Positions 3,770 to 64,000 of a DNA stretch of 64,000 nt are shown one piece after another. The notes beneath the pieces are model-generated. The model ran no database searches. It was not told the origin of the DNA and saw only the letters and a list, made by a program, of their open reading frames with translations. The stretch spans positions 79,772 through 143,771 of IMG/VR virus record IMGVR_UViG_3300042879_003909, one strand, 5' to 3'. Numbering within the stretch: position 1 is the first letter of the stretch; each line of letters begins with the position of its first letter. Source of the stretch: a virus (taxonomy: Duplodnaviria > Heunggongvirae > Uroviricota > Caudoviricetes). A program made the position numbers and the translations under genes.

Positions 3770-3772
3770 TTT

Positions 3773-4964: not shown

Positions 4965-4965
4965 T

Positions 4966-6535: not shown

Positions 6536-6539
6536 ATTA

Positions 6540-7843: not shown

Positions 7844-7855
7844 TAAAATTCCTTA

Positions 7856-8521: not shown

Positions 8522-8525
8522 TCAA

Positions 8526-21099: not shown

Positions 21100-22221
21100 C
21101 TAAATTTGACAAACTTTATCTACAATAAAACCATCTTTGCTATCTGAAGGTTTTCCAATAAGTATCACAGTATTTCCTTCGTATAGCATTTTTTTATACT
21201 GATCATAAGAATCTGGAAAAACAATAACGGAATCTAAAATAGCACTATGGTCTGAAACAGACAAGAATGCCATTTTTTTACCCTTATTCTTTCCCTCTTT
21301 CTTAATAACATACTCTCTCAATCCATTAATAGTAACACCAAGGTTAGCCGGGCCTTTAACAATTCCCTGATAAATTTCCTTACATTCTGCATTGATTATA
21401 TCAGTATCACCCATATCGCTAGCTGCACATGTCATCGGAATGCCCATATAGTATTCTTCTTTCTCTGCTATCCAAGAAGCGTGATCATTTAGATCTGTTG
21501 GAGGATTATCAAGTAGCTTTTTTATGCCCATTAGTATGTCTAATCTCGGTTTATTAACTTTAAAATTATGTATCAAAACGTTAATATGGTGAGATAAAGA
21601 TTCTGTATACTCAACATTATTCTTAATAAAATCTACCTCTCTTTGCGTGAGTTTTTTCCATGCATCATACTCAAATAACATCCTGTTTCTAGAAACAGTG
21701 TTTAGTTTATTATTAAAAATACCACACGATATCATGGCTATAAAAGCCCGCTTATTTATTTTATTAGCAAAATTACATAGTACCGATATCCAATCTAGCT
21801 CTTTAATAGTATTAGGCAGTAGAGACAATATTTTCTCTGATTCGGACTCGCCAATATCTTTCACTAAAGAAATACCAAAATAGATTTTATCTTTATGTAT
21901 AGTAAAATCTTTATATAAATTACCAAGCCTCGGTGGCAATACATCTACATTATGTATCTTGCTATCATATATCAAGCCCCGAATTTCTTCTTGAGTATCG
22001 GGCTTACGTCTAGCATGATTTAAATAAACTTCATAGAACTTGTGAATACTTTTTGCCTTACATAAAGCGCTCCAATAAGCGTTGAGTCCATAAGATACAG
22101 AATGTGAATTAGATACAGCTATGCCATCACCATAAAATATATGGTCTTCTGATCGCACCTCTATATCCATAGTTGGAATTATTCCTATTTTATTACATCT
22201 AATAATTTTTGCAGTATGCAT
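21100..22221 (-). CDS. dnaE: DNA polymerase III alpha subunit, C-terminal fragment, beginning with a 38-aa C-intein
   Basis: Begins MHTAKIIRCNKIGIIPTMDIEVRSEDHIFYGDGIAVSN / SHSVSYGLNAYWSALCKAKS, i.e. a C-intein (..HNF..GI.VSN) followed by the conserved DnaE (FNK)SHSxAY..YQTAWLK region; the rest resembles DnaE C-terminal/OB domains. Confidence 0.75.
   Translation of the reverse strand: MHTAKIIRCNKIGIIPTMDIEVRSEDHIFYGDGIAVSNSHSVSYGLNAYWSALCKAKSIHKFYEVYLNHARRKPDTQEEIRGLIYDSKIHNVDVLPPRLGNLYKDFTIHKDKIYFGISLVKDIGESESEKILSLLPNTIKELDWISVLCNFANKINKRAFIAMISCGIFNNKLNTVSRNRMLFEYDAWKKLTQREVDFIKNNVEYTESLSHHINVLIHNFKVNKPRLDILMGIKKLLDNPPTDLNDHASWIAEKEEYYMGIPMTCAASDMGDTDIINAECKEIYQGIVKGPANLGVTINGLREYVIKKEGKNKGKKMAFLSVSDHSAILDSVIVFPDSYDQYKKMLYEGNTVILIGKPSDSKDGFIVDKVCQI
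22108..22221 (-). mobile_element. split intein, C-terminal half (Int-C) of the fractured dnaE
   Basis: 38 codons ending ..GIAVSN with a +1 Ser; pairs with the N-intein at 23105-23389. Confidence 0.7.
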
Positions 22222-23072
22222 TCAATATCTCCTAGAATGTCTGATTCCCAAAATCTTATCAATTTTATATTATTATTTTTACAAAATTTATTTTTCTTAA
22301 TATCTCTAATGGCATTTCTTTTTTGCGTAGATGTTTTCGGTCCATCTTTGTATATCTTGGGATTACTGTGCCAATAATCTCCATCTATTTCTATACATAT
22401 ATTATAGTCAATGAGATAAAAATCAAAAGACCAATATTCGATTCTTTTTTCTTGTTCGTAGTTTATGTTATTGGCTTCTAATAAATCTTTAAATTTTCGA
22501 CATGGTAAAGTATCATTTTGTTTAAAAATGCCTTCTTTGATTAATCTTAATGTATTCTCTCTTAATTTCTGTTTAGTTTCTTCGGTATGTTTATGTCCAG
22601 TATGTCCATGTACAGATCTTTTTTTAGCTGACTCGCTTTGTTTTTGTTTAGTTTCTACTGACGGCTTTCTACCTATGGCTTTATCTGATATTCTTTTCAT
22701 TAAGTCAGAATTTTCTTTATTCAATCCGTTGTTCCAAGGTATTTTTCCAAACATCGGATTATTGCTTCCGACCCTATTGGTTTTTGCTTCTTGTGACCAT
22801 TTTTTTACACCTTCATTTAAACCACATGCTATCTTTTTATATCTAATATTAGAGCCATCTAATATGACCGTTAGTTTTTTATTGCACGCACCGCAAGGAC
22901 AGCTTGGGCCATATCCAAAATAGTCTGTTAAGGATAACTCATGACATTCTTCTATATGCTTTTTAAAACATTGAGATTTATAAACCCCTGTCCCTCCATA
23001 TTGTTTTACCATTTCTGATAAAGAATAATTACATATTTTACAAAACTCCCATTCTTTCTTTTCTATAATCAT
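22185..23072 (-). CDS. free-standing homing-endonuclease-like protein between the dnaE halves (zinc finger + NUMOD-like repeat + DUF559/Vsr-like endonuclease domain)
   Basis: CKICN...CFKKHIEECH zinc finger; GHTGHKHTEETKQKLRENT (NUMOD3-like GxxHSEETKxKIS); C-terminal DFYLIDYNICIEIDGDYWHSNP...IKLIRFWE (DUF559-type). It lies exactly between the Int-N and Int-C ends. Confidence 0.6.
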   Translation of the reverse strand: MIIEKKEWEFCKICNYSLSEMVKQYGGTGVYKSQCFKKHIEECHELSLTDYFGYGPSCPCGACNKKLTVILDGSNIRYKKIACGLNEGVKKWSQEAKTNRVGSNNPMFGKIPWNNGLNKENSDLMKRISDKAIGRKPSVETKQKQSESAKKRSVHGHTGHKHTEETKQKLRENTLRLIKEGIFKQNDTLPCRKFKDLLEANNINYEQEKRIEYWSFDFYLIDYNICIEIDGDYWHSNPKIYKDGPKTSTQKRNAIRDIKKNKFCKNNNIKLIRFWESDILGDIECILQKLLDVIK

Positions 23073-38108: not shown

Positions 38109-38462
38109 TCAATCTCCTTCTACTATCCATTTTTGCTTTTGTTCTGGTGTCATTTTATTAATTTTACGCATTAAGTCTTTTTTATCTTTTGCTTCTTTAG
38201 AAATAATTTTATTATCTTTTCTCATTTTTTCTTCTAGGCCATATTTGCCTAGCTTTTTAGTATTTGCTTCGGCAAGCTGTCCTATAGTTTTAATTTCTTT
38301 GACTGTTGCGTGAATGCTATCTAATGAATATTCTCTATTAACTTTTTTGCTTTTACATTGATGACATTTAACTTTTTTCATATTATCATCATACTCTTGA
38401 ACTCGCCAAAACTCTACAGATATAGAGTTACACTTTTCACATTTAAAATTATACTCAGGCAT
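38109..38462 (-). CDS. FmdB-like zinc-ribbon protein
   Basis: N-terminal YNFKCEKCNS...KCHQCKS (CxxC-x~20-CxxC). Confidence 0.4.
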   Translation of the reverse strand: MPEYNFKCEKCNSISVEFWRVQEYDDNMKKVKCHQCKSKKVNREYSLDSIHATVKEIKTIGQLAEANTKKLGKYGLEEKMRKDNKIISKEAKDKKDLMRKINKMTPEQKQKWIVEGD

Positions 38463-40206
38463 CTTTTAACCTACTTAAAATTTTTGGAATCAAGCCGTTT
38501 CTGACAACATCGGTGCCATCTAATTCACAAATGGCTACCTTATCTAAATTATGTAATCTAGAAATAAATTTATCTAATCCGCCCTTAGTGTATTCTGGTA
38601 AATCACTTTGGTCAGTATCGCCATTGATAATAGCTTTTGAGTTCATGCCAATTCTAGTAATAAACATTTTTATTTGTTCAAAAGTGCAATTTTGGGCTTC
38701 GTCAAGAATCATAAAAGCATTATGGAAGTTTCTACCTCGCATGTATTCTAGTGGACAAATTTCTATTATATTGGTTGCTTTGAGATGCATCAAGGCTTCG
38801 CCTAGATATTGTTTCATTTCTTCAAGGATAGGAATCATGTACGGATTAATTTTTTCTAACATAGTGCCGGGCAAAAAGCCTAAGCCTTTTCCTGACTCAA
38901 TTACTGGTCTAGTAATAATAACTTTAGATACATCATTTCTCATTAACGCTTCGCAGGCTAATCCAGTAGCAATTGCGGTGTTATGCGTTTGAACAAATCC
39001 GTCTGTTAAATATAAATGACTATTAGAATCTATTAAAATACACTGACATTCTTTTTCTGATATTTTTTCTATTGAATCTATGTATCTTTTTAGAAAATAT
39101 TTTTCTCTTACTAATAAATTTTCTCTTTTTCTGCTTAGCTTAAATGGCACTAAGTTATTATTAAATCTTATAAAAACCCTATAGTTTTCTTTAGTTATTA
39201 TTTTTTCATTATTTTTTGTGTAATGTCCCATTCTTGCACTAATTTTTGCAAAACCGCCTAAAGATTGAACGATAGTTTGAACATCTAGTGCTAGCTGGTA
39301 AGAAGCCGTAGAAAATTCTATTGTACTGCTTCCACAATATCCATCTGTATCTAGCAAGCCAGACAATATTTCAGTTCTAACCTGTTTAGAGTTATAAATA
39401 TATTCTTTTGGTATAAATTTATTATAAGAAAGCTTATTTAAAATACCAAGTCTTTCTAGTTCTGGTTTTAAAACTAAATATCCTCCTGTAATATTATAGT
39501 CACAATTATTTTGTTTGGAGAGAGAACAAGATATTTCATTTAGTACAGGCGTAAGTAAATCTATCATTTCTTTATCATTTGTGCTAAACCTAAGCATTTG
39601 TTGGCTTAATCCGCCGTCACCAATCAAGCATCCTAGCAAGTATGGATCGATATTAACTTCCTGATGATCAAAATCAACTGCTTCTATAGCGGGCAGATAG
39701 TATTTCCTTTTGCCGGATTTTCTTTTATAAGAATTAATAATTTTTTCTAAGGGCAATGTTTTTGGAGCTTTCCAATTTTCACTACATAATGTCCATAAAT
39801 GCTCTTTACAGCATTCTACAGTTTGTCCATCTGAAAATGTTATTAAATAAACATCTTTTTTGCCTTGCGGAAAAACATTTAGTACTTTAGCTCTTTTACC
39901 ATCTTCAGTAAGAACATATGAGCCTATTTTTACATCGCCCATCGCTATTGGGCCACTAGGAGTCCATATTGTAGAATCAAGCGGCTGCGCCTTGCCGCTA
40001 CCGGCCGGGCCAATACATAAAGTAACATCGTTTTCTACAACGCTTCTAATATAATCAGCCTGATTTTTAGTTTTTGGAACTAAAGTTTTTCTTTCTTGTC
40101 TTGGGGGATCTTTCTTTGGCGTATTATCTTGTCTCTTTTTTTTCATAAGATATCCCTTAATATGATTCAGATGTTTGCGCGAATAACGCCGGATTAAGAG
40201 ATGCAT
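38455..40206 (-). CDS. phoH: PhoH-like ATPase interrupted by a 337-aa LAGLIDADG intein inserted in the Walker-A P-loop
   Basis: Exteins CIGPAGSGK / TAIATGLACEALMRNDVSKVIITRP align with PhoH GPAGTGKTYLAvAaAvdAL...RiVLTRP, followed by the DEAQN and GD..Q PhoH core. The insert runs from AQPLDSTIW to LTDGFVQTHN|T and contains LLGCLIGDGG and LSGLLDTDGY LAGLIDADG motifs. Probable start is Met21 (MKKKRQ). Confidence 0.85.
   Translation of the reverse strand: MHLLIRRYSRKHLNHIKGYLMKKKRQDNTPKKDPPRQERKTLVPKTKNQADYIRSVVENDVTLCIGPAGSGKAQPLDSTIWTPSGPIAMGDVKIGSYVLTEDGKRAKVLNVFPQGKKDVYLITFSDGQTVECCKEHLWTLCSENWKAPKTLPLEKIINSYKRKSGKRKYYLPAIEAVDFDHQEVNIDPYLLGCLIGDGGLSQQMLRFSTNDKEMIDLLTPVLNEISCSLSKQNNCDYNITGGYLVLKPELERLGILNKLSYNKFIPKEYIYNSKQVRTEILSGLLDTDGYCGSSTIEFSTASYQLALDVQTIVQSLGGFAKISARMGHYTKNNEKIITKENYRVFIRFNNNLVPFKLSRKRENLLVREKYFLKRYIDSIEKISEKECQCILIDSNSHLYLTDGFVQTHNTAIATGLACEALMRNDVSKVIITRPVIESGKGLGFLPGTMLEKINPYMIPILEEMKQYLGEALMHLKATNIIEICPLEYMRGRNFHNAFMILDEAQNCTFEQIKMFITRIGMNSKAIINGDTDQSDLPEYTKGGLDKFISRLHNLDKVAICELDGTDVVRNGLIPKILSRLKDA
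38980..39990 (-). mobile_element. intein (Ala1-type, with a double-motif LAGLIDADG homing endonuclease) within phoH
   Basis: Block A A-QPLDST (Ala in place of Cys1); block B GQTVECCKEHLW; two LAGLIDADG motifs; C-terminal block G VQTHN followed by +1 Thr, which is the Thr of the GKT P-loop. Confidence 0.75.
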
Positions 40207-48538: not shown

Positions 48539-49459
48539 TTATAATACCTCGTCTAAGGACCATTTGATCTTTTGTGCAGGAAAACCGTCTACGCTACTCA
48601 ATGCCCAAGTGCTTCCGACTTCTATGATATCCTCGGCAACTGATTGTCTCACCCAAAAAGAACCGTCTGGCTGATTAAATCTTTTCGGCCCACTGTTCCA
48701 AGGTCCCCAGCTATTTTGTATTAAAAATAATGTTTCATTGAAAATTTCTCTGGTATCGTCCATAGCTATCCAAGCCATTGCATGGGCCCAATTACCAGAC
48801 CTTTGTGCTATTCCATTTTTATCTCTTTTTTCAGAAAAGCCTAAATTACTGCATGCAAAAATACCATAGCCATTAAATAAGGCATCTCTTGCTTCATCTA
48901 TGCTCCTGATATTAGATGCGGTTTTTACCTGATTTTTCTTTGCTTCTTCTACTAGCGCTCTAGGTGTTCCGGATCGGCCCCAAGAAGCTGCCATTCTACC
49001 ATTATAAACCGAAAGATCATGAGATCCATATTTTTTTCTTAATAAGATGCCACCGTCTTGCGTTAAGAATCTGACCGCTCTTTCGCATGTCATTCCTTGG
49101 CCCGTGTGTCCACGAACGCCATAAATGCCCTCCGTGGCAGAACGAACTATAAAAGACTCTTTATCGCCATTGATAATTTCGGTCGATCTTGTGGTATCTA
49201 CGGCGTTTCTAGCGGCGTGACTTACACAATCCCCGGTGGTCTGTCTTTCATTAAATGCTTTTGGGTCAAATTTTAATAAATTTTTGAATAATAAAGCTGT
49301 TTTACCCTTGCCAGAGCCAGCTATGGACTGAGCCGCAAGTCCAAAGTAAGGATATTTAGACTCGGCCAATAATCTTTCTTGCCCCTCTTTATCACAAACA
49401 GAACCAATAAAACCATTTTTGTATGCGTTTAAAAGCTGAAGAGGGGTATTAAAGATCAT
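48539..49459 (-). CDS. papain-like cysteine peptidase (candidate endolysin or peptidase)
   Basis: Putative catalytic Cys in TTGDCVSHAARNA, His in NWAHAMAWIAM, and an NSWGPWN motif reminiscent of papain-family NSWG. Confidence 0.4.
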   Translation of the reverse strand: MIFNTPLQLLNAYKNGFIGSVCDKEGQERLLAESKYPYFGLAAQSIAGSGKGKTALLFKNLLKFDPKAFNERQTTGDCVSHAARNAVDTTRSTEIINGDKESFIVRSATEGIYGVRGHTGQGMTCERAVRFLTQDGGILLRKKYGSHDLSVYNGRMAASWGRSGTPRALVEEAKKNQVKTASNIRSIDEARDALFNGYGIFACSNLGFSEKRDKNGIAQRSGNWAHAMAWIAMDDTREIFNETLFLIQNSWGPWNSGPKRFNQPDGSFWVRQSVAEDIIEVGSTWALSSVDGFPAQKIKWSLDEVL

Positions 49460-49460
49460 A

Positions 49461-50507
49461 TTAGTCTCCTATTTTATCCAGTATGGATTTCGCGGTATTT
49501 TTCCACGTAAATTTTTGAGAGGTATTAATGCCGGAATCATTATTTAAAAATCCTGCTGACTGTTTAATCTTGTGAACTTCTTTCATGTGATGTATTACGG
49601 CTTCTTTTTGTTTTTCTGTGATCTTAGCCCATAAGCCTTGACCATGAAACCAAATGCCATCTTGAGCTAATTCTAAGCTATCTATTTCGATTAGCCTAGC
49701 ATTATTTTTATCACAAAATTCAGTATGGGCAGAATAATTTGTGGTTATAACTTGCTTTCCGCATGCTAGAACCTCTAATAATTCTAAATTCCAGCCTTCG
49801 GCCCTAGCTGGAAACACCCCGCAGTCAATTTGTCGCATTATATTATACACATTTTTTTGGGTGGCTTGTCTTGGTATAATCTTGATTTTATTTGATAAAT
49901 GCGAGCTTTTGCATAAATTAACCCAAGATTCTCCCCTATCCATAAGGAAAGGATTATCGCACATAAGCCACAATTCTACGTTATCTTTTTGTGTAAATGC
50001 CCTGTTAAAGCATTCTATCAGAATATCATGACCCTTACGTTTTTCCCATTTTCCGCAGTTAAAAAAGATAGTTTCTGGCCTAGATATATTATTTAATCCA
50101 TTAAATATAACATTATCTACGCCCAAAGGTATTACAGAGGTTGGCACACTAACATGCTGATGAACTATATCTTGAGCCCACTTACTAGTGGTAAAAATAT
50201 GGTCGCAATGATTTAAGCTGGCGACTTCTTGCTGGGTAAAATGGGTTAATTCAAAAATGGGAAATCCTACGCGCCTTCCTTTTGTTATCCAAGTTGTTAG
50301 TTCGTGCTGGTGCCATATTTTAATTTCTGTATCTTTACTATTAATTTTTTTATTTATCCAAAATAAACTTTTGATATCCTCTGACAAATCTTTATCTGGG
50401 GAGCTTATAGGATACAAGCATACATCTGTTAGTAAGCTAAGCTCTTTCGAGATATGGTATCCAGTATAGCCATACCCGGTAGTATTTATTGGGGCTTGAA
50501 TAATCAT
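49461..50507 (-). CDS. GT4-family glycosyltransferase
   Basis: VFPARAEGWNLELLEVLACGKQVITTNYSAHTEF (E-x7-E). Confidence 0.6.
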   Translation of the reverse strand: MIIQAPINTTGYGYTGYHISKELSLLTDVCLYPISSPDKDLSEDIKSLFWINKKINSKDTEIKIWHQHELTTWITKGRRVGFPIFELTHFTQQEVASLNHCDHIFTTSKWAQDIVHQHVSVPTSVIPLGVDNVIFNGLNNISRPETIFFNCGKWEKRKGHDILIECFNRAFTQKDNVELWLMCDNPFLMDRGESWVNLCKSSHLSNKIKIIPRQATQKNVYNIMRQIDCGVFPARAEGWNLELLEVLACGKQVITTNYSAHTEFCDKNNARLIEIDSLELAQDGIWFHGQGLWAKITEKQKEAVIHHMKEVHKIKQSAGFLNNDSGINTSQKFTWKNTAKSILDKIGD

Positions 50508-51319
50508 TTAACTTCCTCTTGTGCTTTTAAAAATTCTGGTATGTATTTTTTATCTTCTCCAAAAAAATGTACAGCCATGTCTATTTTAGTTTTTAGGACA
50601 TTTTCGCCATTTTGTTTAATTAAATCAAAACTAGCCGCGATTTCTATAGGTGGATGTACTATAATTTTTGTTATATTAACAAAAGAATCATAAATACATT
50701 CATCGCATATAAATTCATATCTTTGTTTACCGTATATTTCTTCATGTTTCAGTAATAATTCTTTGATATGATTATCATCCCTTATGTCCAATCTGTAATC
50801 TTTGCAAAAGTTTTCTAGGCTATTTCTTACTCCTTCTGTCATTTTGATTAGTCCTGCGTTTGTATCATAAAGATATAGATCATTTAAATTCATAATCTTT
50901 TGTAAAAAATCTGTTTTTCTTTTAACGTGAAAAAAAGATATCTCATTTTCTCTATTCAATAAGTTATGCATTATGTGACAATCATTTTTCATTAACTCAA
51001 ATATATTTTTTGATTTATCTAAAATTAAATCTAAATCTACCCACATAATTTCGTCATAATCTTTTGTAGTTAAAAAACCATAAACACTACATAAAGTCGC
51101 GGGGGCCCATATACATGGATAATAATGTCCATAAGATCTTATCTTGTTGTAAATAGTATTAAATGGGGTAGAGTTGTCGATTACTGATAGATCGCAATTA
51201 ATGTATTCACAATATCTATCTAAATTATTAAGAGATCTTATTTGCCATCTAGACAGTCCTTTAAAATATGGAGTATATCCATTTGAGAAACATCCAGTAA
51301 TTATAATTCTTTTTGTCAT
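50504..51319 (-). CDS. putative GT-A-like nucleotide-sugar transferase
   Basis: DxD-like MWVDLDLIL; only weakly supported. Confidence 0.3.
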   Translation of the reverse strand: MTKRIIITGCFSNGYTPYFKGLSRWQIRSLNNLDRYCEYINCDLSVIDNSTPFNTIYNKIRSYGHYYPCIWAPATLCSVYGFLTTKDYDEIMWVDLDLILDKSKNIFELMKNDCHIMHNLLNRENEISFFHVKRKTDFLQKIMNLNDLYLYDTNAGLIKMTEGVRNSLENFCKDYRLDIRDDNHIKELLLKHEEIYGKQRYEFICDECIYDSFVNITKIIVHPPIEIAASFDLIKQNGENVLKTKIDMAVHFFGEDKKYIPEFLKAQEEVK

Positions 51320-52248
51320 AATATATTCTTTAATTTAGTAATAAAATCATATACAAAGTATTCTCCTGTCAAAAAATACTTATCCATGTTTTTTATATAT
51401 TCATGTGCTTCTATTATTTTGTTTATATTTAATAAATCTTCCGGGCCATTGTAATATAGAGGATAATCATTCCCTAAATATTCAACGGTCGCATCGAGTT
51501 TATTGGTTAAAATAGGTGTGTTTCTTATCATTGGCTCTATTATACCATTATTAGCCGAAGTAGCCCAAAGGCAAGCATATACTAATGTTTTACTTAGATG
51601 TTCGTCATACTGATTATTTTCAAGTCGGCTAGGGGCATGTACCTCGTAATCTTTTCCGGTAAAACAGCTTAACCTATTCCATATCTTATTGTATTCCTCA
51701 ACAAAGCCCGGCAGACAATATGTTTCGTAATTAAGGTTATTATTTTTTATAAAGCTACATATATTGCTAAATTCTTCAAAGTTTCTTAACCAATATCCCA
51801 ATTGCGAAATAGATGGAGACTTTAAAAATTCAAAGGGGCTCCAAGTTTTGTGCACTTTTTCAGTTGGATGCTTTACAGAAAATGTCGGAATTTTAAGTCC
51901 CCATATTTTTAACAAATTATTTACATCTTTTAATAAAGAATTAGATAAGGTTATCAGACATAAACATTTTTCTAAAGATTTATAAAAGTTGGGCTGACTA
52001 AATAAAAAATGCAATGAATTTTTTTTATCAAACTCGGGCTTATCATGAACTGGCACATGAATAATTCCAATCCAAGGAAAATTATAATAAGAGTTATCCG
52101 TTTTCCTGCCCCATATAAACTTTCTTTCTACAAAATCATCTAAAAATATTCCATTATTAGAATGGAATGGTTTTAAACAATTTATAACATAGCTCCAGCC
52201 AGACCTGTGCATGCTAAAGCCTTCGCATTTAGATAAGTTTAGTCTCAT
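51316..52248 (-). CDS. hypothetical protein (possibly glycosyltransferase-related)
   Basis: ORF in the glycosyltransferase/methyltransferase island; no firm motif. Confidence 0.3.
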   Translation of the reverse strand: MRLNLSKCEGFSMHRSGWSYVINCLKPFHSNNGIFLDDFVERKFIWGRKTDNSYYNFPWIGIIHVPVHDKPEFDKKNSLHFLFSQPNFYKSLEKCLCLITLSNSLLKDVNNLLKIWGLKIPTFSVKHPTEKVHKTWSPFEFLKSPSISQLGYWLRNFEEFSNICSFIKNNNLNYETYCLPGFVEEYNKIWNRLSCFTGKDYEVHAPSRLENNQYDEHLSKTLVYACLWATSANNGIIEPMIRNTPILTNKLDATVEYLGNDYPLYYNGPEDLLNINKIIEAHEYIKNMDKYFLTGEYFVYDFITKLKNIL

Positions 52249-53054
52249 CCTATCTTTTCGCCTATAAAAGATTCATAACATCCAGCATCATATATCCATT
52301 TAAAAAAATTAATTCTTTTTTTGTAATCTTCGTCTTTAAATTTACAGCCAAACAAAAGCATGTCTGGATTATCGCTCCATTTTTCTTGATTAAAATAGCC
52401 CAAATCATAAAACCATTTTGAAAAAAATTTATCATCAAAGTCTGATAGCGGTATGTACTCAAATATATTTAATCTTCTAGACCAAATTAATTGATTATTT
52501 TTATTTATTAAAGATGGTGCCATTGCAGACATTGTTCTTGGCGTTAACACCGGCTTAAATCCACCATTAGAATTATAGTAATAACCATTAAAAATACAGC
52601 CATAAATTAGAGGCTGGTGAATTTCATCAGTTAGCTCCATTAATGAATTTTTATTCCATTCTCCCCCAATCTTTCTGGCATGATATATGCTAGCTAATTC
52701 ATTATTAAACTCACTACTTTTTGTATTGTTGTAAACACACGAATGATCGCCCAAAAACCCATAGGCCGACCTATATAAATTATTCAAAGACATAACTCTT
52801 GCTAAATAATCGTCTGGTATAAGATTGTTTTCGCATAAAAATCCTACCAATAAAGATTTGGTTGAAGATGGAACTTCATTTAAATCTAGTTTTTTAATGT
52901 TTATCTTTACCCCAAGCTCCTTAGCCTGATTTTCAAGAGATTCTGAGCATGGTCTATAGGCAATACCTCGGTCGTCTTTGCTTGATGTAGAAAAAATACC
53001 GGGCACTTTTGTTTCATTATTTATTATAAAAAAGTCTATCATACTAGCTTCCAA
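52245..53054 (-). CDS. hypothetical protein
   Basis: ORF only. Confidence 0.3.
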   Translation of the reverse strand: MEASMIDFFIINNETKVPGIFSTSSKDDRGIAYRPCSESLENQAKELGVKINIKKLDLNEVPSSTKSLLVGFLCENNLIPDDYLARVMSLNNLYRSAYGFLGDHSCVYNNTKSSEFNNELASIYHARKIGGEWNKNSLMELTDEIHQPLIYGCIFNGYYYNSNGGFKPVLTPRTMSAMAPSLINKNNQLIWSRRLNIFEYIPLSDFDDKFFSKWFYDLGYFNQEKWSDNPDMLLFGCKFKDEDYKKRINFFKWIYDAGCYESFIGEKIG

Positions 53055-55855: not shown

Positions 55856-55857
55856 AG

Positions 55858-55933
55858 TATGGCGTGTTGGAATCGAACCAACCTATGAGCGCCTTATAAG
55901 AGCGCCGGATGCTACCAGCTTACCTTACACCAC
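55858..55933 (-). tRNA. tRNA-like element with a UAU anticodon arm (tRNA-Ile(UAU)-like, possibly a pseudo or partial tRNA)
   Basis: Minus-strand sequence GTGGTGTAAGGTAAGCTGGTAGCATCCG GCGCT CTTATAA GGCGC TCATAG GTTGG TTCGATT CCAAC ACGCCAT A. It has a perfect T arm (GTTGG/TTCGATT/CCAAC). The anticodon arm has a 5-bp stem with loop CUUAUAA, anticodon UAU. The 7-bp acceptor stem has 5 Watson-Crick and 2 G.U pairs. The D arm is poor (only 2 clean pairs) and position 8 is A. A T-run follows the 3' end. Folded by hand only. Confidence 0.45.
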
Positions 55934-57146: not shown

Positions 57147-57845
57147 TTAATATCCCCACGCCTCTAGCGTGTATTTAAATGGATTGCCCTCGATATTCTT
57201 AACGCACTCTAGCATTTTAGCAGCAATTTCGCGGATTTCAAGTTGTGCCGCCTCATCCATGCGTAATTTTAGAAAATTTTCAAAACACGACATATTAGAC
57301 ATAATGCTTAGGGTTATTTGAGAGTTGTAAGTTTTAAAATATCTTGCCGACTCTTTGGCTCGCTTGCGACCAAGAACTGGCGTTAAATCTTCAAGGCATT
57401 TATGATACAAGCTATTGCCTAAAGCTGTATAGTCATTTAGTATATCTTCCCAAGTGTCATTTGTATAGTCATAACTAAAATCTCCAGAATATAAAGTATC
57501 TGGAAGTGAAGATGGTTTAATACTCCCCCAATCTTCCGGCAAATAATACTTATCTTCTTTCAACTCTTTATATCTTGCGCTTTCGCCGTTTACATTAAGT
57601 AGCCTGTGTTTTACGATATGAATGTGACTTGCCACGCAGCAAGTAATATTAAATTCTACTATGCCTCTCTCAAAAGGGGTCTTATGGGGCTTGCCAGTTC
57701 CGTTATTCCAAAGTTTATTAACAAGCAAATCACGAATTTGCCCATCTGTTTTTTTATCAACATCGGCTTGTGTAGAAGTCCATGCTGCTCTAGCTATAGC
57801 TCTATCGCCGCCATACCACCCAATTAATTCTACGCTATTATTCAT
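57147..57845 (-). CDS. thyX: flavin-dependent thymidylate synthase
   Basis: ThyX signature HRLLNVNGESARY (RHR-x7-S) plus other ThyX-like segments (GWYGGDRAIARAAWTS). Confidence 0.75.
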   Translation of the reverse strand: MNNSVELIGWYGGDRAIARAAWTSTQADVDKKTDGQIRDLLVNKLWNNGTGKPHKTPFERGIVEFNITCCVASHIHIVKHRLLNVNGESARYKELKEDKYYLPEDWGSIKPSSLPDTLYSGDFSYDYTNDTWEDILNDYTALGNSLYHKCLEDLTPVLGRKRAKESARYFKTYNSQITLSIMSNMSCFENFLKLRMDEAAQLEIREIAAKMLECVKNIEGNPFKYTLEAWGY

Positions 57846-58092
57846 TATCGCTCCATTGTTTTTCTTTTAATACAACAATTATTAAATTTTTGACACACTG
57901 ATCAAAATCGCCCGTTGGATTTTTCCAATTTTCAAGCACATGATTCAAAACTTTTTTATCTAGTTTTTGAGATTCGGCATCTCTATCATATGAGCCCGTA
58001 TTAGTCATATGTACATCTAAGGCACAGTCTAATATAGATCGCCCGTCTAAAGCTTTTTCAACCCACTGTGGTCTATACATCGTAATACCCAT
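57838..58092 (-). CDS. hypothetical protein
   Basis: ORF only. Confidence 0.3.
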   Translation of the reverse strand: MGITMYRPQWVEKALDGRSILDCALDVHMTNTGSYDRDAESQKLDKKVLNHVLENWKNPTGDFDQCVKNLIIVVLKEKQWSDNE

Positions 58093-58543
58093 TCAAAAAA
58101 TAATCTTCTACTTTATTTTTATATAAATTTATTTGAATATTAGCTTCATGAAACATTTTTGTAGAAATTACAAACTCGTCATACCATCTTGTCTCTGGGA
58201 CATAATAGGATACCACTCTTTTTATGCCAGCCTGAATAATCATACCAGCACAAACAGGACACGGCATAAATGGATAAGTATAAATTGTACAATCTTTCAG
58301 AGATTGCTTAGCAAATAATAAACTATTTCTTTCTGCATGTACAATATATTTGTACTTAATATCTCGGTTATTAAGTTTTTCAGGATCATCTTCAACCCCG
58401 CGAGGAAATCCGTTATATCCTAAAGATACAACAGTCCTATCGCTATCTATAATAACAGCCCCGACCTTAGTTGACGGATCTTTTGAGGCAGTTGAGACAT
58501 ATTCTGCCATGCCTAAGAACCATTTGTCCCACTTATAATCCAT
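58073..58543 (-). CDS. dCMP deaminase (cytidine/deoxycytidylate deaminase family)
   Basis: Zinc-binding HAERNS (H-A-E) and PCPVCAGMI (PCxxC) motifs. Confidence 0.8.
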   Translation of the reverse strand: MDYKWDKWFLGMAEYVSTASKDPSTKVGAVIIDSDRTVVSLGYNGFPRGVEDDPEKLNNRDIKYKYIVHAERNSLLFAKQSLKDCTIYTYPFMPCPVCAGMIIQAGIKRVVSYYVPETRWYDEFVISTKMFHEANIQINLYKNKVEDYFLNGYYDV

Positions 58544-59199
58544 AGTAAATTTCCATTGCTAATTAAATTTCCAGTCCTGTCTTCAATACATGAACCATTA
58601 CTAAAAAAAGTATTAATCCCAGCCAACTGTAGCATACCAGAATTTAGTACATGTGAAGAGTTATGAATGTGTCCAAATAGGTGTAACTGTGGTCTAATTT
58701 GGCCTATTCTTTTTAATAAATTTTTACATCCAGCCCTCTCTAATTCCATATGCATGGTCAAGTCCAATATTCCCATTGGTGGCCCGTGTGTAATTATAAT
58801 ATCTGTATCATCAGGAATCAAGTCCCAATATTTATGAATTTTTGCTCTATCTACATTCCATGCCCAGTCTTTTCCAAATGTTGGTGTTTGTGGCGCTCCG
58901 TAAAATTTCACGCCATCAATTATAGCTTCTTGGTTCTCTAAATAAATAATTCCACTCGGTATTTGCTCGGGGAGAATTCTTTTATGAAAAATAGAAACAT
59001 CATGATTGCCCGGCACCAAAATCTTATATTGAATATTTAGTGCCGAAAACCAATCCAGAAAAGACATAGTTTCATTATAGTTAATGTCTATGTTTCTAGA
59101 ATTTGAAAAATCGCCCGAATGAACAACAGCATCTACCTCATGTGGAATTTTTAACTCCCCATGTTTACAATGCGTATCGCTAATATGCCAAATTTTCAT
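58513..59199 (-). CDS. calcineurin-like metallophosphoesterase
   Basis: ISDTHCKHG, VHSGDFSN, VPGNHDVS and ITHGPP metal-binding motifs. Confidence 0.65.
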   Translation of the reverse strand: MKIWHISDTHCKHGELKIPHEVDAVVHSGDFSNSRNIDINYNETMSFLDWFSALNIQYKILVPGNHDVSIFHKRILPEQIPSGIIYLENQEAIIDGVKFYGAPQTPTFGKDWAWNVDRAKIHKYWDLIPDDTDIIITHGPPMGILDLTMHMELERAGCKNLLKRIGQIRPQLHLFGHIHNSSHVLNSGMLQLAGINTFFSNGSCIEDRTGNLISNGNLLWIISGTNGS

Positions 59200-59849
59200 T
59201 TTATAATCTTTTTAATACTAAAAATATGACCCATTCTGCCCGGCCATGTAGATACTCTAAACTCTTTTTCTGAATTTGGAAGGACATTTTTTCTTATTTC
59301 AAATTTCTTATCTTTAAACCAAGTATTACCACCCGATACAACCCCTATAACTTCTTTTTTACTATTTAAAACTGGGGAGCCTGATTCGCCAGATACGAAA
59401 AATACATCTGCAAAAATCTCGTTTTCATCCATCGCAGAAACTTTGGTTCTTCTTATTCCTCTCGGAGAACATATAAAAATTTCTTCTTCTTCCTGTATTG
59501 TTTCTCCTAAAGAAATAGGGCTAATTTTATTGGGTGTCCATGATTTTAAAATAGCTACATCGGCTTTTTCATCTTTAGACACTAATGTAGAATTTGATAC
59601 TGGTTGTCCATTTGTATATAATATGCTGTATGTTGAGCTACCTTCAACAACATGAGCAGCAGTCAATATAAGTGATCTATAGCCCTCGCCCAAAGCATGG
59701 GGTGCATCTTCAAGCTTTTTAATTACTACCCCAGTTCCTTGCGCAACTCCCCCGCCCGGCATGTTAACACTAATTGTAACAAGAGATTCTTCTTGTGCAA
59801 TTAAATTAAAAGCAAAAAGACTAAAAAATAAAAATAGAATATACTTCAT
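59196..59849 (-). CDS. secreted trypsin-like (S1) serine protease
   Basis: Signal peptide MKYILFLFFSLFAFNLIAQ; catalytic His (LTAAHVVEG) and Ser (SGESGSPVLN). Confidence 0.6.
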   Translation of the reverse strand: MKYILFLFFSLFAFNLIAQEESLVTISVNMPGGGVAQGTGVVIKKLEDAPHALGEGYRSLILTAAHVVEGSSTYSILYTNGQPVSNSTLVSKDEKADVAILKSWTPNKISPISLGETIQEEEEIFICSPRGIRRTKVSAMDENEIFADVFFVSGESGSPVLNSKKEVIGVVSGGNTWFKDKKFEIRKNVLPNSEKEFRVSTWPGRMGHIFSIKKIIK

Positions 59850-59860
59850 AATACATTTCC

Positions 59861-61123
59861 TTAAATAAGAATATCTTTAATTAATTTTCCATTATCAACA
59901 ATTTCGATAGGTCTCGGGCCCGGGGCCAATAATTCTTTTTCTCCAACAATTCCTAATAAATGATACATCGTGTAAGCTAAATCTTCTGGGCTTGTTGGAT
60001 TCATATCAGGGTCAGATGCAGTAGGATCAGAAGAGCCATAAACCATTCCCTGCTTTATTCCGCCACCAGCAAGTAATACGCTAAAAACTTTTGGCCAATG
60101 ATCGCGTCCAGCATCTTTGTTTACTTTTGGCGTTCTACCAAATTCGCTGGAGACCATTATCAATGTTTTACCTAGCATACCACGCTCCTCTAAATCTAAT
60201 AGTAGAGTCGAAATAGCTTTATCTAAAGGAGGAAGTTGATTATTCATTCCGCCGGAGATGCCTGTGTGCATATCCCAGCCACCATATGTAACAGTCACCA
60301 TTCTTACGCCAGCTTCAACTAGTCTTCTAGCTATTAGAAGTCTTTGACCCGCTTCATTTTTGCCATATCTTTCTTTAGTTTGATCATTTTCTAATTCTAG
60401 ATTAAAAGCATCTCTTGCTTGAGCAGAACTAATTAAATTATAAGCCTGTTCATAAAATTTGTCCATAGCCACGATTTTATCTGAATTGTGTTTAGATGAA
60501 AATTCTTTATTTAATAAATCAAGAGCCTCTCTTTTTTTGTTGAATCTATTAACTTCGTCTTGAGAATTTAAATCTAAAACTTTAAAATCCTTGCTTGCAG
60601 GATCGGAATTTAAGCTAAATGGCTTATAAGAAGAGCTTAGATATCCATTATTAGCAAACTCATTTGGAGTATTTGGTACACAAACATATGGAGGCAAATT
60701 GTTTCTTGAGCCATATTCGTGACTAATTACACTTCCGAAACTAGGATATGATAAAGCCGGGCTTGGCTTATACCCAGTAAACATATTATGGGTGCCTCGC
60801 TCATGAGCGGCTTCGCCGTGAGTCATTGACCTAATAAGAGTAAATTTGTCAGAAATATTAGCTAGCTGTGGCAATCGGCTTGAGAGTATATCGCCCGTTT
60901 TTGTTTTAATAACATTAACATCGCCCCTGTATTCTATTGGAGCAAATGGCTTAGGGTCAAAAGATTCTTGATGAGCTATTCCGCCCGGCAAAAAGATATG
61001 AATTACGCTTTCGGCTTTAGCTGGAATAAAATCATATTTTTGTTGCTCTGATTTTAAATATAGTGCCTGAGCTAGATTAATACCGAAAAAACTACCAATC
61101 TGTAGAAAATTTCTTCTATACAT
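59861..61123 (-). CDS. DUF1501-family (sulfatase-like) protein
   Basis: TYGGWDMHTG, VSSEFGRTPKVNKDAGRDHW and LLAGGGIKQG motifs recalled for DUF1501; paralogous to the next gene. Confidence 0.6.
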   Translation of the reverse strand: MYRRNFLQIGSFFGINLAQALYLKSEQQKYDFIPAKAESVIHIFLPGGIAHQESFDPKPFAPIEYRGDVNVIKTKTGDILSSRLPQLANISDKFTLIRSMTHGEAAHERGTHNMFTGYKPSPALSYPSFGSVISHEYGSRNNLPPYVCVPNTPNEFANNGYLSSSYKPFSLNSDPASKDFKVLDLNSQDEVNRFNKKREALDLLNKEFSSKHNSDKIVAMDKFYEQAYNLISSAQARDAFNLELENDQTKERYGKNEAGQRLLIARRLVEAGVRMVTVTYGGWDMHTGISGGMNNQLPPLDKAISTLLLDLEERGMLGKTLIMVSSEFGRTPKVNKDAGRDHWPKVFSVLLAGGGIKQGMVYGSSDPTASDPDMNPTSPEDLAYTMYHLLGIVGEKELLAPGPRPIEIVDNGKLIKDILI

Positions 61124-61209
61124 AAAAGTCCTAATTAAAAGAGCTGTCTGCGGCTAATTCGCCCTTAATATCTTGGGCAAAACAAACTAATTATACTATA
61201 ATAAATACA

Positions 61210-62487
61210 CTAATCAACTAATTCTGTGATTATTTTGCCACTATTTGCTATTTTCATAGGTCTTCCATCATTGGAAGTAAAATTTGTTTCTAGAGAAATA
61301 TCAAGCGATTTAAGAACTGTCGCCATTATATCTTGGGCAGAATAGGGTTCAGTGGCTACCGATGTTCCATCTTCGTTTGTAGAGCCGATTACTTGTCCGC
61401 CCTTAACTCCGCCGCCACCAAGCACTACGCTCCAAGCTTTTGCATAGTGATCGCGTCCGGCATCGGTGTTAATGTTTGGAGTACGCCCAAACTCGCCCAT
61501 CCACAAGATTGTGGTGTCTTGATAAAGACCACGTTGATTTAAATCTTCTATTAAAGCACTCATGGCCTGATCCATGATTGGTAGCTTTTCTTCTAGTGTA
61601 TTAAAAATATCCGCATGATTATCCCAGCCACCAAAATCTACCTCGATAAAAGGAGTACCGACTTCAACCAGACGGCGGGCCATCAAGCATCCTCGCCCAA
61701 AAGAATTATCGCCATATCTCTGTTTAATTTTTTCTGGCTCTTTATCTATTTTGAATAGATTCATTTGATCGCTGGCAACAACTTTAACGGCACGGCCTAA
61801 AGTCTTTGAATGATCTTGAGGAAGAGAGCCTCTATTTTCTTTTATAAATCCTTTTTCTATAACCTCCAAAGCCCTTAGTCTCTGGATCATCCTTAATTCA
61901 TCTACATTAAATTTTAAATCTCTAATATTTCCATTTGAACCAACTACAAATGGAGAATAGCTAGCTCCTAAAAATCCCGGGCCAATACTGGCTCCTCCAA
62001 TAGAAACAAATTGCGGTATTTCTAGTGCTGGATTATTTAACTGATTAGAAATTACAGAGCCATAACTTGGATGCTCCATAGTTGGAGAAGGTGCATATCC
62101 AGTATGTAAATAATATCTGCCCCTTGTATGGTCGGCTTCTCTGGTGCTCATGCTTCTAACTATGCTTAGATTATGCATCTGTTTTGATAGAAGGGGCAAA
62201 TGTTCGCAGATTTGAATGCCATCTGCCGATGTTGAAATAGGTTTAAACTTTCCTCCAGTCGGAGCATTTGGCTTCAAGTCCCATATGTCGATAGTGCTAG
62301 GCCCACCATTCATCCAAAGCAAAATACATGATTTATTTTTTTTCTTTATTTCATCCGCTTTTGCAAAAAGTCCAGAACCAACAAAACCAGAAGCCAAAAT
62401 TAAATTATTTACAAATTCTCTTCTATTCATTTTTATTACCCTTGTTTTTTGTAGCATAACCCTTTTCGACCATAACATTTGATACAT
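61210..62487 (-). CDS. DUF1501-family protein with a twin-arginine (Tat) signal
   Basis: MNRREFVNNLILASGFVGSG Tat-like N-terminus (probable true start); FGGWDNHAD, MGEFGRTPNINTDAGRDHY and VLGGGGVKGG motifs. Confidence 0.65.
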   Translation of the reverse strand: MYQMLWSKRVMLQKTRVIKMNRREFVNNLILASGFVGSGLFAKADEIKKKNKSCILLWMNGGPSTIDIWDLKPNAPTGGKFKPISTSADGIQICEHLPLLSKQMHNLSIVRSMSTREADHTRGRYYLHTGYAPSPTMEHPSYGSVISNQLNNPALEIPQFVSIGGASIGPGFLGASYSPFVVGSNGNIRDLKFNVDELRMIQRLRALEVIEKGFIKENRGSLPQDHSKTLGRAVKVVASDQMNLFKIDKEPEKIKQRYGDNSFGRGCLMARRLVEVGTPFIEVDFGGWDNHADIFNTLEEKLPIMDQAMSALIEDLNQRGLYQDTTILWMGEFGRTPNINTDAGRDHYAKAWSVVLGGGGVKGGQVIGSTNEDGTSVATEPYSAQDIMATVLKSLDISLETNFTSNDGRPMKIANSGKIITELVD

Positions 62488-62902
62488 CGTCTAAAGAGCC
62501 ATCTCCATCAACATCTTTATAAATATATCCTAGTACTCTAGACATATTAACAGAATTTGAAATATTTCCATCAAAAGGCACTCTTACATGCACTTCATCA
62601 TTTGGTTTTAATATTTTTTGTAAATATTCTTTCGATTCTAATCCTCTGGCTTTTTCTTGCTGGTTTTTTGTTTTTATTTCAGGCGCCCAACAATCTACCA
62701 TTCTTATATTTGCTCGGATTTTAAATTCTACTGTTACAGTATCTCCATCATAAACAGAAATTATTTTAGCCGGGGCATCAATAAATGTTTCTGTCTTAGA
62801 ATAAGCTAATGTAAACCTTGTAGCTACTACAAATAGCATAAACATAGCGCAATAACTAGAAATAATATTTAAGATTTGAGCAGCTACAAGTTTATATTTC
62901 AT
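62423..62902 (-). CDS. membrane-anchored staphylococcal-nuclease (SNase/thermonuclease)-like protein
   Basis: N-terminal TM; SVYDGDTVTVEF..NIRMVDCWAPE...RVLGYIY...MVEKGYA matches the SNase fold (ViDGDTi.v......vRL.gIDaPE...yGR.lAyv...G). Confidence 0.55.
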   Translation of the reverse strand: MKYKLVAAQILNIISSYCAMFMLFVVATRFTLAYSKTETFIDAPAKIISVYDGDTVTVEFKIRANIRMVDCWAPEIKTKNQQEKARGLESKEYLQKILKPNDEVHVRVPFDGNISNSVNMSRVLGYIYKDVDGDGSLDDVSNVMVEKGYATKNKGNKNE

Positions 62903-62904
62903 AT

Positions 62905-63885
62905 TTATTCCTCTTGAAAGATATCCGAGTTTGCCCGGGTCATTAGGGCTATAATATTTTGTCCGCTAGAAGTTTCCGATATAAAATGCACAGAGCCATC
63001 ACATCTTAGGCTCATTATACCACCATTATGAAAACTGTAAAGCTCACTATCGTTTGTACAATTCATGTTGCACTGTCCTACTATAGTAACAGCACCACTA
63101 GAAGAAGTGCCATTTTGTACGCCAATTTCGTTAGAACCATCTAAACTAAATCCATTGTTAATATCGGCCCAGCCCCATCCATCTCCAACAAAAGGCGTAT
63201 TAAAAACTAAACCAGATTTTGGATTCTGTGATATTCTACTGCCTCTTCCATAGAAACTTGGTCTTCCGGAGCCCTCTGCCACAATTACTGTTTGGCTTGT
63301 TCCATCTAGAATCTGGCTCATTTTAACGCCTTGAGGCCCTCTTGCAAGAGCACCAAAGACTTCTCTGGTATTTATTGATGGAAGCCCATTAGACACAAAG
63401 AATGAGTTTCTAACAGCATTCACGGAACCATAATCGCTATAACCAAAAACCGGCTGACCATAAGTAATTCCTAAAGCAACATATAGGCTTTGAAAAGGAA
63501 CTTCTCTGGTCGCTGGTGCTGTTGGGCACAAATATGTAGGGATAGACTTAGTTGTAATTGGGGTATTTAAAGAATCAAACCAATTTACGCCATGATAATA
63601 ATTGTTATATGCAGATGTTTGTTCAATAAAAGGAAGAACCATTTTTTGCCAAGATTGCTGAAAAACCGGAGGCGAAACACTAATCCGGCTTGGCGGAAAT
63701 AGTTTATATGTACTTTCGTAATTCAATAAAGCTAATCCAATTTGCTTTAAGTTGTTGGAACATTGCATTCTGCGGGCTGCTTCTCTGGCTGCTTGAACTG
63801 CCGGAAGCAATAATCCCACTAAAACGCCAATAATTGCAATAACAACTAGAAGTTCAATCAATGTAAAACCATTCTTTTTTTTCAT
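62905..63885 (-). CDS. DUF1559 protein: type-IV-pilin-like N-terminal methylation domain plus C-terminal H-X9-DG motif (a Planctomycetes/Verrucomicrobia signature family)
   Basis: N-terminus [56 protein letters not shown]; C-terminal [20 protein letters not shown] (H-x9-DG). Confidence 0.75.
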
Positions 63886-64000
63886 TTTTTTTCTCCATAT
63901 AAAAATAGTAAAGCGATATCTATAATTACACTTTACAAATCATATGTTAAGAACTTAACCAAATCTTAACTTACTATCTTTATATGATCTTTAATCCAGT

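Follow-up and report, generated by a model that had tools for sequence, protein, structure and literature searches.

The stretch of DNA described here, called the window throughout, comprises 64,000 nucleotides (positions 79,772 to 143,771) of the IMG/VR virus record IMGVR_UViG_3300042879_003909, assigned to the Caudoviricetes. Close to its end, five consecutive open reading frames (ORFs) on the minus strand (59196-59849, 59861-61123, 61210-62487, 62423-62902 and 62905-63885) encode proteins that all carry export signals, as had been read by eye in an original prediction. Along that strand, they specify a DUF1559 (SBP_bac_10) protein of 326 amino acids (62905..63885), the first gene of the array; an SNase-like (thermonuclease-fold) endonuclease of 159 amino acids (62423..62902); two DUF1501 proteins, to be called DUF1501_B or B-type (406 amino acids; 61210..62430) and DUF1501_A or A-type (420 amino acids; 59861..61123); and a secreted trypsin-fold serine protease of 217 amino acids (59196..59849). 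The start of the DUF1501_B gene is corrected: it is most likely located at 62430, as called on the loci L001 and L003, instead of at the mechanical ORF start, 62487. The block is internal to the genome of a phage and its genes point to Pirellulaceae as the host.

The families had been assigned by eye, and all the assignments proved to lie above the curated cut-offs of the hidden Markov models (HMMs) of Pfam and NCBIfam (scores given as bits/cut-off). The DUF1559 protein, predicted to combine a pilin-type methylation domain with an H-x9-DG motif, matches SBP_bac_10/DUF1559 (PF07596; 171.6/23.3) and N_methyl (PF07963; 35.8/21.2) in Pfam, and TIGR02532 (31.2/16.3) and the H-X9-DG model TIGR04294 (21.3/19) in NCBIfam. 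The endonuclease matches SNase (PF00565; 29.6/21) and the protease matches Trypsin_2 (PF13365; 48.5/27.6). Both DUF1501 proteins are full-length with respect to PF07394 (DUF1501_A: 357.8/27, profile 1-390 of 390; DUF1501_B: 356.4/27, 2-390 of 390), and, at 34% identity to one another, they are old paralogues, excluding a recent duplication.

Export signals were read from the sequence, those of the twin-arginine translocation (Tat) pathway at motif level. It had been claimed that one of the two DUF1501 paralogues has a Tat signal; the paralogy stands, but both proteins carry twin-arginine motifs, MYRRNFLQ followed by AQA in DUF1501_A and MNRREFV followed by AKA in DUF1501_B, and RR-x-[FL] is present in all of the approximately 25 phage copies of DUF1501. 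The motifs further downstream are SFDPKP (D56), RSMTHGEAAHERG (T101, H107), GGWDMH (D284, H286), SEFGRTP and GRDHW (D341, H342) in DUF1501_A, and RSMSTREADHTRG, GGWDNH, GEFGRTP and GRDHY in DUF1501_B. Nine residues (H107, D284, H286, E327, R330, T331, R340, D341 and H342) are invariant in 24 out of 24 phage and 83 out of 83 bacterial copies. Such a D/H/R pattern would suit a metal-dependent hydrolase with a Thr or Ser nucleophile, in which the invariant residues would provide putative metal ligands. A search of the PDB with the DUF1501 sequence gave no match at E<=1, while Foldseek, queried with an AF2 model of DUF1501_A (pTM 0.74), retrieved no structures other than members of the alkaline phosphatase superfamily (S1 sulfatases, LtaS, YejM/PbgA, alkaline phosphatase and phosphonate monoester hydrolase), with a probability of ~1.0. 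At the level of the superfamily, the model thus suggests an alkaline-phosphatase-superfamily fold.

The protease has the predicted signal peptide, of the Sec type, over residues 1-19 (MKYILFLFFSLFAFNLIAQ|EE), and the catalytic motifs TAAHV (H66), DVAIL (D97) and GESGSP (S156). It resembles the HtrA core but is no full HtrA/DegP, as it lacks a PDZ domain and scores 37.8 versus 416 for TIGR02037; it matches the phrog_9683 protease, its phage relatives being otherwise weak. The SNase-like protein, described before as membrane-anchored, indeed has a hydrophobic N-terminal export or anchor segment of ~23 residues (~5-27), which implies that it acts outside the cytoplasm. Its motifs are DGDT (52-55), IRMVDCWAPE (66-75) and SRVLGY (121-126), and it aligns with staphylococcal nuclease in the PDB (2e-4), where the alignment with 2sob includes equivalents of DGDT, R, PE and SR-L. 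The reference calcium-binding and catalytic residues are D21, R35, D40, E43 and R87; the equivalence of D40 is uncertain, since the region (VDCWAPE) is two residues longer than VDTPE, although DC[WY]APE is kept in the orthologues. The homologues in the related phage contigs L004 and L007 conserve the hydrophobic N-terminus as well as the motifs. Finally, the DUF1559 protein starts with a class III prepilin signal, MKKKNG|FTLIELL (G6|F7; E11, i.e., E+5), and features the C-terminal H-X9-DG as H286-x9-D296G297. Its AF2 model, from an alignment of 34 sequences, is confident only for the long alpha-1 helix (residues 9-60; overall pTM 0.27, pLDDT 46); PDB sequence matches are limited to pilin N-termini (~60 residues), and the score against the GspG model remains below threshold (38.2 versus 88.85). 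No genes for pilus or type II secretion system assembly were seen in the 64-kb window.

Both the window and the sequence that follows it belong to a phage. Nearly all window ORFs occur on one strand, and PHROG matches include a DnaE-type DNA polymerase (split), UvsX, DnaB, ribonucleotide reductase, PhoH and an exonuclease, as well as ThyX, dCMP deaminase and an endonuclease. With tblastn, the polymerase is of the DnaE/Pol III-alpha type, and the nearest deposited phage polymerase is only 36% identical, so that the phage is without a close cultured relative. Its genome is large and AT-rich, probably ~158 kb in size. The sequence upstream of the DUF1559 gene is available in L001 (positions 1-1056) and other loci: a non-coding leader of ~900 nt, of which the start lies in the window (63886..64000, minus strand), harbours a tRNA-Arg(TCT) and is followed by the gene for a phrog_624 DNA-binding protein and then by rIIB (1e-66; rIIB matches 2,668 phage records). 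The GC content is 0.27-0.42 throughout the window and 0.34-0.38 in the block, which thus has the phage-like AT-rich composition noted before. At third codon positions (GC3), the five block genes have 0.18-0.29 and the phage core genes 0.26-0.33, as compared to 0.53-0.63 in bacterial orthologues, and codon usage in the block equals that in the phage core. By exact-protein look-up, the same DUF1559 gene was found in the same arrangement in contigs of four independent samples. The phage genes beyond the block, the uniform GC and the phage-like GC3 therefore place the block inside the phage genome.

Similarity and phylogeny show that two genes of the block, those for DUF1559 and DUF1501_A, were captured from Pirellulaceae, and their composition is fully phage-like now. 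The best non-self match of the DUF1559 protein (69%) is encoded in an ordinary bacterial context on a contig of the Pirellula sp. metagenome-assembled genome (MAG) P_PIRE1 (GCA_032116775.1); the next matches (55-63%) include Pirellula- and Pirellulaceae-named proteins, some on megabase-size contigs. Over the full length, DUF1501_A shares 64-68% identity with proteins of, among others, Aureliella helgolandensis, Pirellula sp. SH-Sr6A and Pirellulaceae SH501. In a scan with one genome per GTDB species, the best 80 of 496 relatives were 64-71% identical and, where labelled, all from Planctomycetota, with Pirellulaceae or Pirellula in the majority and lakes as a frequent source; the top match (71%) comes from the same P_PIRE1 MAG that provides the best DUF1559 match. 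A neighbour-joining (NJ) tree, for which supports were obtained by explicit bipartition counting, groups the window DUF1501_A with its counterparts from two related phage lineages (100%) and this clade with the bacterial orthologues (99% bootstrap), and leaves further A-like copies carried by phages outside. Monophyly of all phage DUF1501 copies has 0% support, which argues for more than one phage-host exchange. In all, three of the five exported proteins are captured from the host.

The host is almost certainly a freshwater Planctomycete of the Pirellula type, that is, one of the Pirellulaceae close to Pirellula, as judged from these gene relationships. DUF1559 and DUF1501 had been put forward as a strong host-range clue, with phylogeny against Planctomycetes-Verrucomicrobia-Chlamydiae (PVC) bacteria as the proposed check, and both the best matches and the tree now narrow that clue to Pirellulaceae. 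The labelling of the whole block as PVC-type holds for DUF1559 and DUF1501 but not for the SNase-like gene, which is no PVC hallmark: it belongs to an ordinary phage family, phrog_452 (1.4e-13), that occurs in 155 phage records, mostly of cyanophages. It shares with the phrog_452 SNases of T4-like cyanophages and other phages the domain and the catalytic motifs (~29% identity over residues 46-159), and the window protein and its orthologues in L004 and L007 differ from them by the N-terminal hydrophobic segment. DUF1559 families are large in the Planctomycetes, with 68 paralogues in Planctopirus limnophila and 74 in Rhodopirellula baltica (PMC10632474, PMC2754498). The phage protein is a full-length member of this family, including methylation site, E+5 and H-X9-DG, but it is present in a single copy of phage composition.

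Two phage tRNAs, Ile(TAT) (55857-55933, minus strand) and Arg(TCT) (L001 590-661), read AUA and AGA. In the phage, AUA makes up 41% of the Ile codons and AGA 63% of the Arg codons; in Pirellulaceae loci the shares are 6.5% and 5% (an 8-12-fold difference). The two tRNAs thus match codons common in the phage and rare in Pirellulaceae, as expected for an AT-rich phage in a GC-richer host, and compensate codon supply for a mismatch of 15-20 GC points. The bacterial loci that carry DUF1501_A orthologues have a GC content of 0.49-0.63. Adjoining the tRNA-Arg(TCT) on its upstream side, in the leader of the block, there is a tmRNA-like element (L001 255-588, i.e., ~64.35-64.69 kb) that matches Rfam RF00023 over the full model length at 46.9 bits versus a gathering score of 47, and for which ARAGORN made no call. 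A clear tmRNA (105.8 bits) is present in L007 (16252-16562) and a permuted-tmRNA match (57.7 bits) follows the DUF1559 gene in the contig L108 (8993-9220); together with the element of the window phage, they suggest that this phage group encodes tmRNAs.

In bacteria, DUF1501 belongs to a larger module. Neighbour clustering around 81 bacterial DUF1501_A orthologue loci showed DUF1501 followed by a ~830-amino-acid PPC-domain protein (78/81), a ~850-amino-acid PSCyt2/PSD1 protein (63/81) and PSCyt1/WD40 (at least 45/81, a lower bound set by flank length). This is the gene order of the "most complex" four-gene cluster of PVC bacteria described by Kamneva et al. in 2012 (PMC3542564), so that DUF1501_A is, by sequence and gene order, the orthologue of gene 1 of the PVC DUF1501/PPC/PSCyt2-PSD1/PSCyt1-WD40 module. 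The phage A-type protein is 64-71% identical to gene 1 over the full length and has the same Tat signal and invariant residues, but the phage carries DUF1501 alone, in two anciently diverged versions without PPC, PSCyt or PSD, with a GC3 of 0.25 in DUF1501_A (0.53-0.63 in bacteria) and followed by a trypsin-like protease gene. Homologues of Trypsin_2 or SNase were found beside bacterial DUF1501 orthologues in 0 of 80 loci; the pairing with a protease is thus a phage innovation, not inherited with the gene. In each of the seven contexts examined, the relatives of DUF1501_B (62-79%) reside on phage-like contigs of low GC, and no bacterial name occurs among its best 120 relatives.

Related phages keep much of this arrangement. 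In L004, L005 and L006 (74 kb and others), the order is rIIB, phrog_624, SNase, another DUF1559 paralogue, a small secreted protein, DUF1501_A (82%), protease (64%), metallophosphoesterase and dCMP deaminase, whereas L007 (111 kb) lacks DUF1559 and features DUF1501_A (75%), SNase, DUF1501_B (79%) and protease. In both groups the protease orthologue follows directly after DUF1501, while in L106, L107 and L112, an unrelated PF00089 trypsin does so; the recurrence of a trypsin-fold protease at this position in two phage groups, from barely alignable families, points to a functional link. IMG/VR yielded 15 contigs (GC 0.29-0.49) with one to three DUF1501 genes each, several of which share ribonucleotide reductase, DnaB, DnaE, UvsX or phrog_624 with the window. 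The same scan with the DUF1559 protein gave only an N-terminal pilin match; DUF1559-bearing relatives came from the protein database. Across lineages that are 60-80% identical in core genes, the cassette is kept at a dN/dS of 0.04-0.2 (with dS saturated), and DUF1501_A (0.04-0.14) has the lowest dN in the neighbourhood. The conservation pattern, with export signals and invariant residues intact, indicates that the cassette is under purifying selection in several phage lineages, and with their clear cellular origin, viral flanks and selection, DUF1559 and DUF1501 qualify by sequence as auxiliary genes.

The island turns over its exported cargo. The DUF1559 paralogue in L004 (8360-9988; also in L005 and L006) has 374-378 amino acids and is 36% identical to that of the window, the DUF1559 of L108 being 64% identical. 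Behind the former, L004, L005 and L006 encode the extra secreted protein of 144 amino acids, which starts with a textbook signal peptide and matches no family. In L002 (3969-4307), a variant contig of the same phage, the SNase-like gene is cut to 112 amino acids and 99% identical where retained, which suggests that some genomes can do without the nuclease or, alternatively, that the variant stems from the assembly or a frameshift.

The block is the front of a co-directional array on the minus strand that continues with genes for a calcineurin-like metallophosphoesterase of 228 amino acids without export signal (58513..59199; Pfam Metallophos, 43.7 bits), dCMP deaminase (58073-58543) and ThyX (57147-57845). 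The genes are tightly packed (overlaps of -8, -4, -31, -20 and -8 nt): the last 8 nt of the SNase-like gene overlap the DUF1501_B gene, and the protease gene starts 11 nt after DUF1501_A and overlaps the metallophosphoesterase gene by 4 nt. A terminator scan of the array revealed no convincing internal terminator. Scans for sigma-70 promoters and terminators gave numbers of matches near those in shuffled AT-rich sequence, and the sole perfect TTGACA-16-TATAAT (L001 443-470) lies within the tmRNA-like match; for both reasons, no promoter is claimed. The metallophosphoesterase neighbour is conserved beside the cassette in L004, L005 and L006 and beside DUF1559 in L108. Over nearly its full length it is highly similar to the phage-defence candidate PDC-S10 of PADLOC (2.7e-63).

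On balance, we favour the interpretation that the block is an exported auxiliary cassette of a Pirellulaceae phage which sustains breakdown and scavenging in the periplasm by means of host export and host partners of DUF1501 such as PSCyt. The description of the cassette is much firmer than the role in scavenging. That the genes have auxiliary exported functions, as first proposed, is borne out in outline by the export signals in all five proteins and by the selection that keeps the cassette in related phages; the specific roles suggested then, degradation of polymers or DNA and pseudopilin mimicry, are putative, and the biochemical role is drawn from analogy, with the host periplasm as the most likely site of action. 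The block would be transcribed as the front part of the co-directional array, ahead of metallophosphoesterase, dCMP deaminase and ThyX. Host Tat would export the two DUF1501 proteins and host Sec the protease and the nuclease, while DUF1559 would take the prepilin-peptidase/pseudopilus route and join a host fibre as a pseudopilin. In the large planctomycetal periplasm or at the cell surface, the DUF1501 enzymes could then replace or augment the host DUF1501 subunit in association with host PSCyt/PSD proteins and, together with protease and nuclease, keep the breakdown of macromolecules (phospho- or sulfo-esters, protein, DNA) going in infection, so that sustained periplasmic scavenging would feed phage DNA synthesis.

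This logic has a precedent in cyanophages. Large lytic cyanophages carry pstS and phoA, host-derived genes for periplasmic proteins, beside nucleotide-metabolism genes; phoA encodes an enzyme of the alkaline phosphatase superfamily, and the presumed purpose of both is nutrient supply during infection. The analogy lies in the host-derived periplasmic cargo near nucleotide-metabolism genes; the differences are that the sequences are unrelated, that phage DUF1501 is exported by Tat and that the cassette adds a protease, a nuclease and a pseudopilin.

Several observations weigh against a scavenging cassette of a Pirellulaceae phage. DUF1501 and DUF1559 are without known biochemical function (PMC3542564, PMC10632474), which makes "scavenging" an analogy rather than a result. 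DUF1501_A shows fold similarity at superfamily level only (TM 0.3-0.38, 9-15% identity), and its substrate is thus not assignable. No PSCyt/PSD homologues were found in the 64-kb window or in the phage loci L004-L024, and most related phage loci lack them, so that cooperation with host partners is assumed. The DUF1559 copies of different phage lineages are different paralogues (36-64%), a pattern that an arms-race role would explain no less well than a metabolic role. The timing of expression is deduced from gene order alone, and no virion structural genes were seen in the stretches examined. As to the host, the assignment is based on the similarity of genes and on the fit of tRNAs to codons, and the phage GC (0.34) is 15-20 points under that of the candidate hosts; the bacterial sequences in the tree were chosen by similarity to the query, rendering the deeper branching unreliable.

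A less probable but still serious explanation is that the cassette remodels the envelope, either to exclude superinfecting phages or to mask receptors: DUF1559 would poison or cap a receptor fibre of the host that resembles a type IV pilus or pseudopilus, the nuclease would destroy foreign DNA as it enters the large periplasm, and the protease and DUF1501 would trim or alter receptors at the surface. All five proteins are directed to the envelope, the export segment of the nuclease is kept in three lineages, and the Foldseek neighbours of DUF1501_A include enzymes of envelope lipids (LtaS, YejM/PbgA). Moreover, the divergence of the DUF1559 paralogues in L004-L006 and L108 and their absence from L007 amount to a turnover typical of host-interaction genes. 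A functional analogue may be seen in Tip and Aqs1, small cytoplasmic proteins of Pseudomonas phages that inhibit PilB and cause superinfection exclusion via type IV pili; here, too, a phage product would act on a pilus-type machine of the host, but there is no homology, and Tip and Aqs1 are PilB inhibitors while DUF1559 resembles a pilin substrate. Nor is the block homologous to other known exclusion proteins, and PADLOC has no match for either DUF1501 or DUF1559, and only weak domain-level matches for the protease (LmuA, 4.5e-9; RT-protease) and the SNase (5e-4). DUF1501_A evolves more slowly than any other gene around it and is strictly orthologous to a conserved host enzyme, unlike an arms-race gene, and the presence of the entire host module including PSCyt/PSD in the related element L106/L107 suggests provision of a pathway, not blocking.

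Considerably less likely is a role in lysis or egress, in which the protease and the sulfatase-like hydrolases would digest the protein-rich envelope from the periplasmic side to let virions escape. The location of a serine protease directly after DUF1501 in two phage groups, from two barely related families, would suit such helpers, as would the nearby rIIB, a lysis-timing gene in T4. Yet the genes that surround the block and are translationally coupled to it serve nucleotide metabolism and are not holin, endolysin or structural genes; no adjoining lysis genes were identified, and neither the pilin-like protein nor the nuclease has an obvious function in lysis.

That the block is host DNA is highly improbable, even if three of its five genes are of families otherwise typical of planctomycetal chromosomes, no PHROG covers DUF1501 or the body of DUF1559 and no deposited phage has them. 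We considered three forms of it. A prophage-host junction, which the original prediction had offered as an alternative, is ruled out by the uniform GC and GC3, the flanking tRNA-Arg, phrog_624 and rIIB, and the same syntenic position in related phages; no integrase was present among the scanned genes and no att-like boundary was seen. A low-GC bacterial chromosome region, for which continuous housekeeping genes downstream would have spoken, is ruled out by the phage genes on both sides and a GC3 and codon usage that are phage-like and unlike those of the bacterial orthologues; what lies beyond the window is the tRNA, phrog_624 and rIIB. A chimeric assembly is ruled out by the identical arrangement in four independent samples. 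Least credible of all are functionless passengers, i.e., recently captured host genes in decay. Random pick-up of host DNA by phages does happen and the SNase gene is truncated in L002, but the ORFs are full-length with intact signals and all invariant residues, dN/dS is low, and the composition is fully ameliorated in genes conserved across lineages.

The scavenging cassette may be one instance of something broader. Two jumbo-size, phage-like contigs with a GC of 0.32, L106 (JGI 3300042366 Ga0453951_0000001, 233,716 bp) and L107 (ENA ERZ27272096 k141_806300, 217 kb), encode over locus positions 10001-19310 a DUF1501 protein, a 626-amino-acid protein, PSCyt1/PSCyt2/PSD1, a second DUF1501, PspC, trypsin, an M28 peptidase and thioredoxin; the larger of the two, L106, also has PHROG matches for endonuclease VII and an ATP-dependent ligase. 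Hence, a ~234-kb phage-like element carries the whole DUF1501/PSCyt/PSD module. Five kb upstream of that module there is a Sulfotransfer_4 gene; the Aureliella DUF1501 gene is likewise adjoined by Sulfotransfer_4 and a sulfatase. It is possible, and we say so tentatively, that planctomycete phages have domesticated the PVC DUF1501(/PSCyt-PSD) system as a recurrent, partly phage-specific auxiliary function, with perhaps three or more DUF1501 lineages in circulation within a broad clade of large low-GC phages. If so, the system would be rate-limiting in the planctomycetal periplasm, for instance in uptake and digestion of macromolecules or in energisation of the envelope, and phage-host gene exchange would offer a first experimental and comparative handle on DUF1501, PSCyt/PSD and DUF1559.

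Host-derived auxiliary genes are already well known; what is new is the link to the host and the clue to DUF1501 and DUF1559. Among 50,697 deposited phage genomes, DUF1559 occurs in none, DUF1501 gives weak partial matches in two only, and there is no characterised phage of a planctomycete. PHROGs have no family for DUF1501 or DUF1559, and full-text literature searches with the phrases tried returned no paper that links DUF1501, DUF1559 or PSCyt to phages and none on planctomycete phages. Lakes, oceans and biofilms are rich in Planctomycetes, and for a clade of uncultured large phages the cassette provides a concrete link to Pirellula-like Pirellulaceae, a host which GC content alone would never suggest. 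DUF1501 and DUF1559, without a known function for 20 years, are two of the largest "function unknown" families of PVC bacteria; to phages, they are worth repeated capture, with exportability kept and with stricter conservation than the phage's own nucleotide-metabolism genes. Hypotheses on their roles are narrowed, to an exported, probably metal-dependent hydrolase working with PSCyt/PSD for DUF1501 and to a putative fibre subunit for DUF1559, and the compact phage versions can be nominated for biochemical work.

Elsewhere in the window, a number of features are of interest in their own right. The DnaE-type polymerase is split into an N-terminal part of 894 amino acids (23102-25786, minus strand) and a C-terminal part of 373 amino acids (21100-22221, minus strand; HHH_6 and OB fold); the 295-amino-acid ORF between them (22185-23072), with NUMOD3 and DUF559/Vsr-like signatures, looks like a homing-endonuclease insertion. 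The sole plus-strand group (17-2572) consists of three ORFs of 408, 128 and 302 amino acids, with the switch in orientation near 2.6 kb; the two that were scanned (408 and 302 amino acids) have no Pfam or PHROG match. Behind it, some 20 consecutive minus-strand genes (3017-20757) include an NAD-dependent sugar epimerase/dehydratase (12436-13443) and GT1-type glycosyltransferases (13373-14425, 17020-18006, 17993-19102 and 19093-20757), and a second group of glycosyltransferases is located around 49461-50507 (region 48539-53054, minus strand). The two regions represent an investment in glycan synthesis that is unusually large for a phage. The PhoH-like protein (583 amino acids; 38455-40206, minus strand) has an extra N-terminal P-loop region, which matches PHROGs of a DnaC-like loader, a primase and a terminase ATPase, an unusual fusion.

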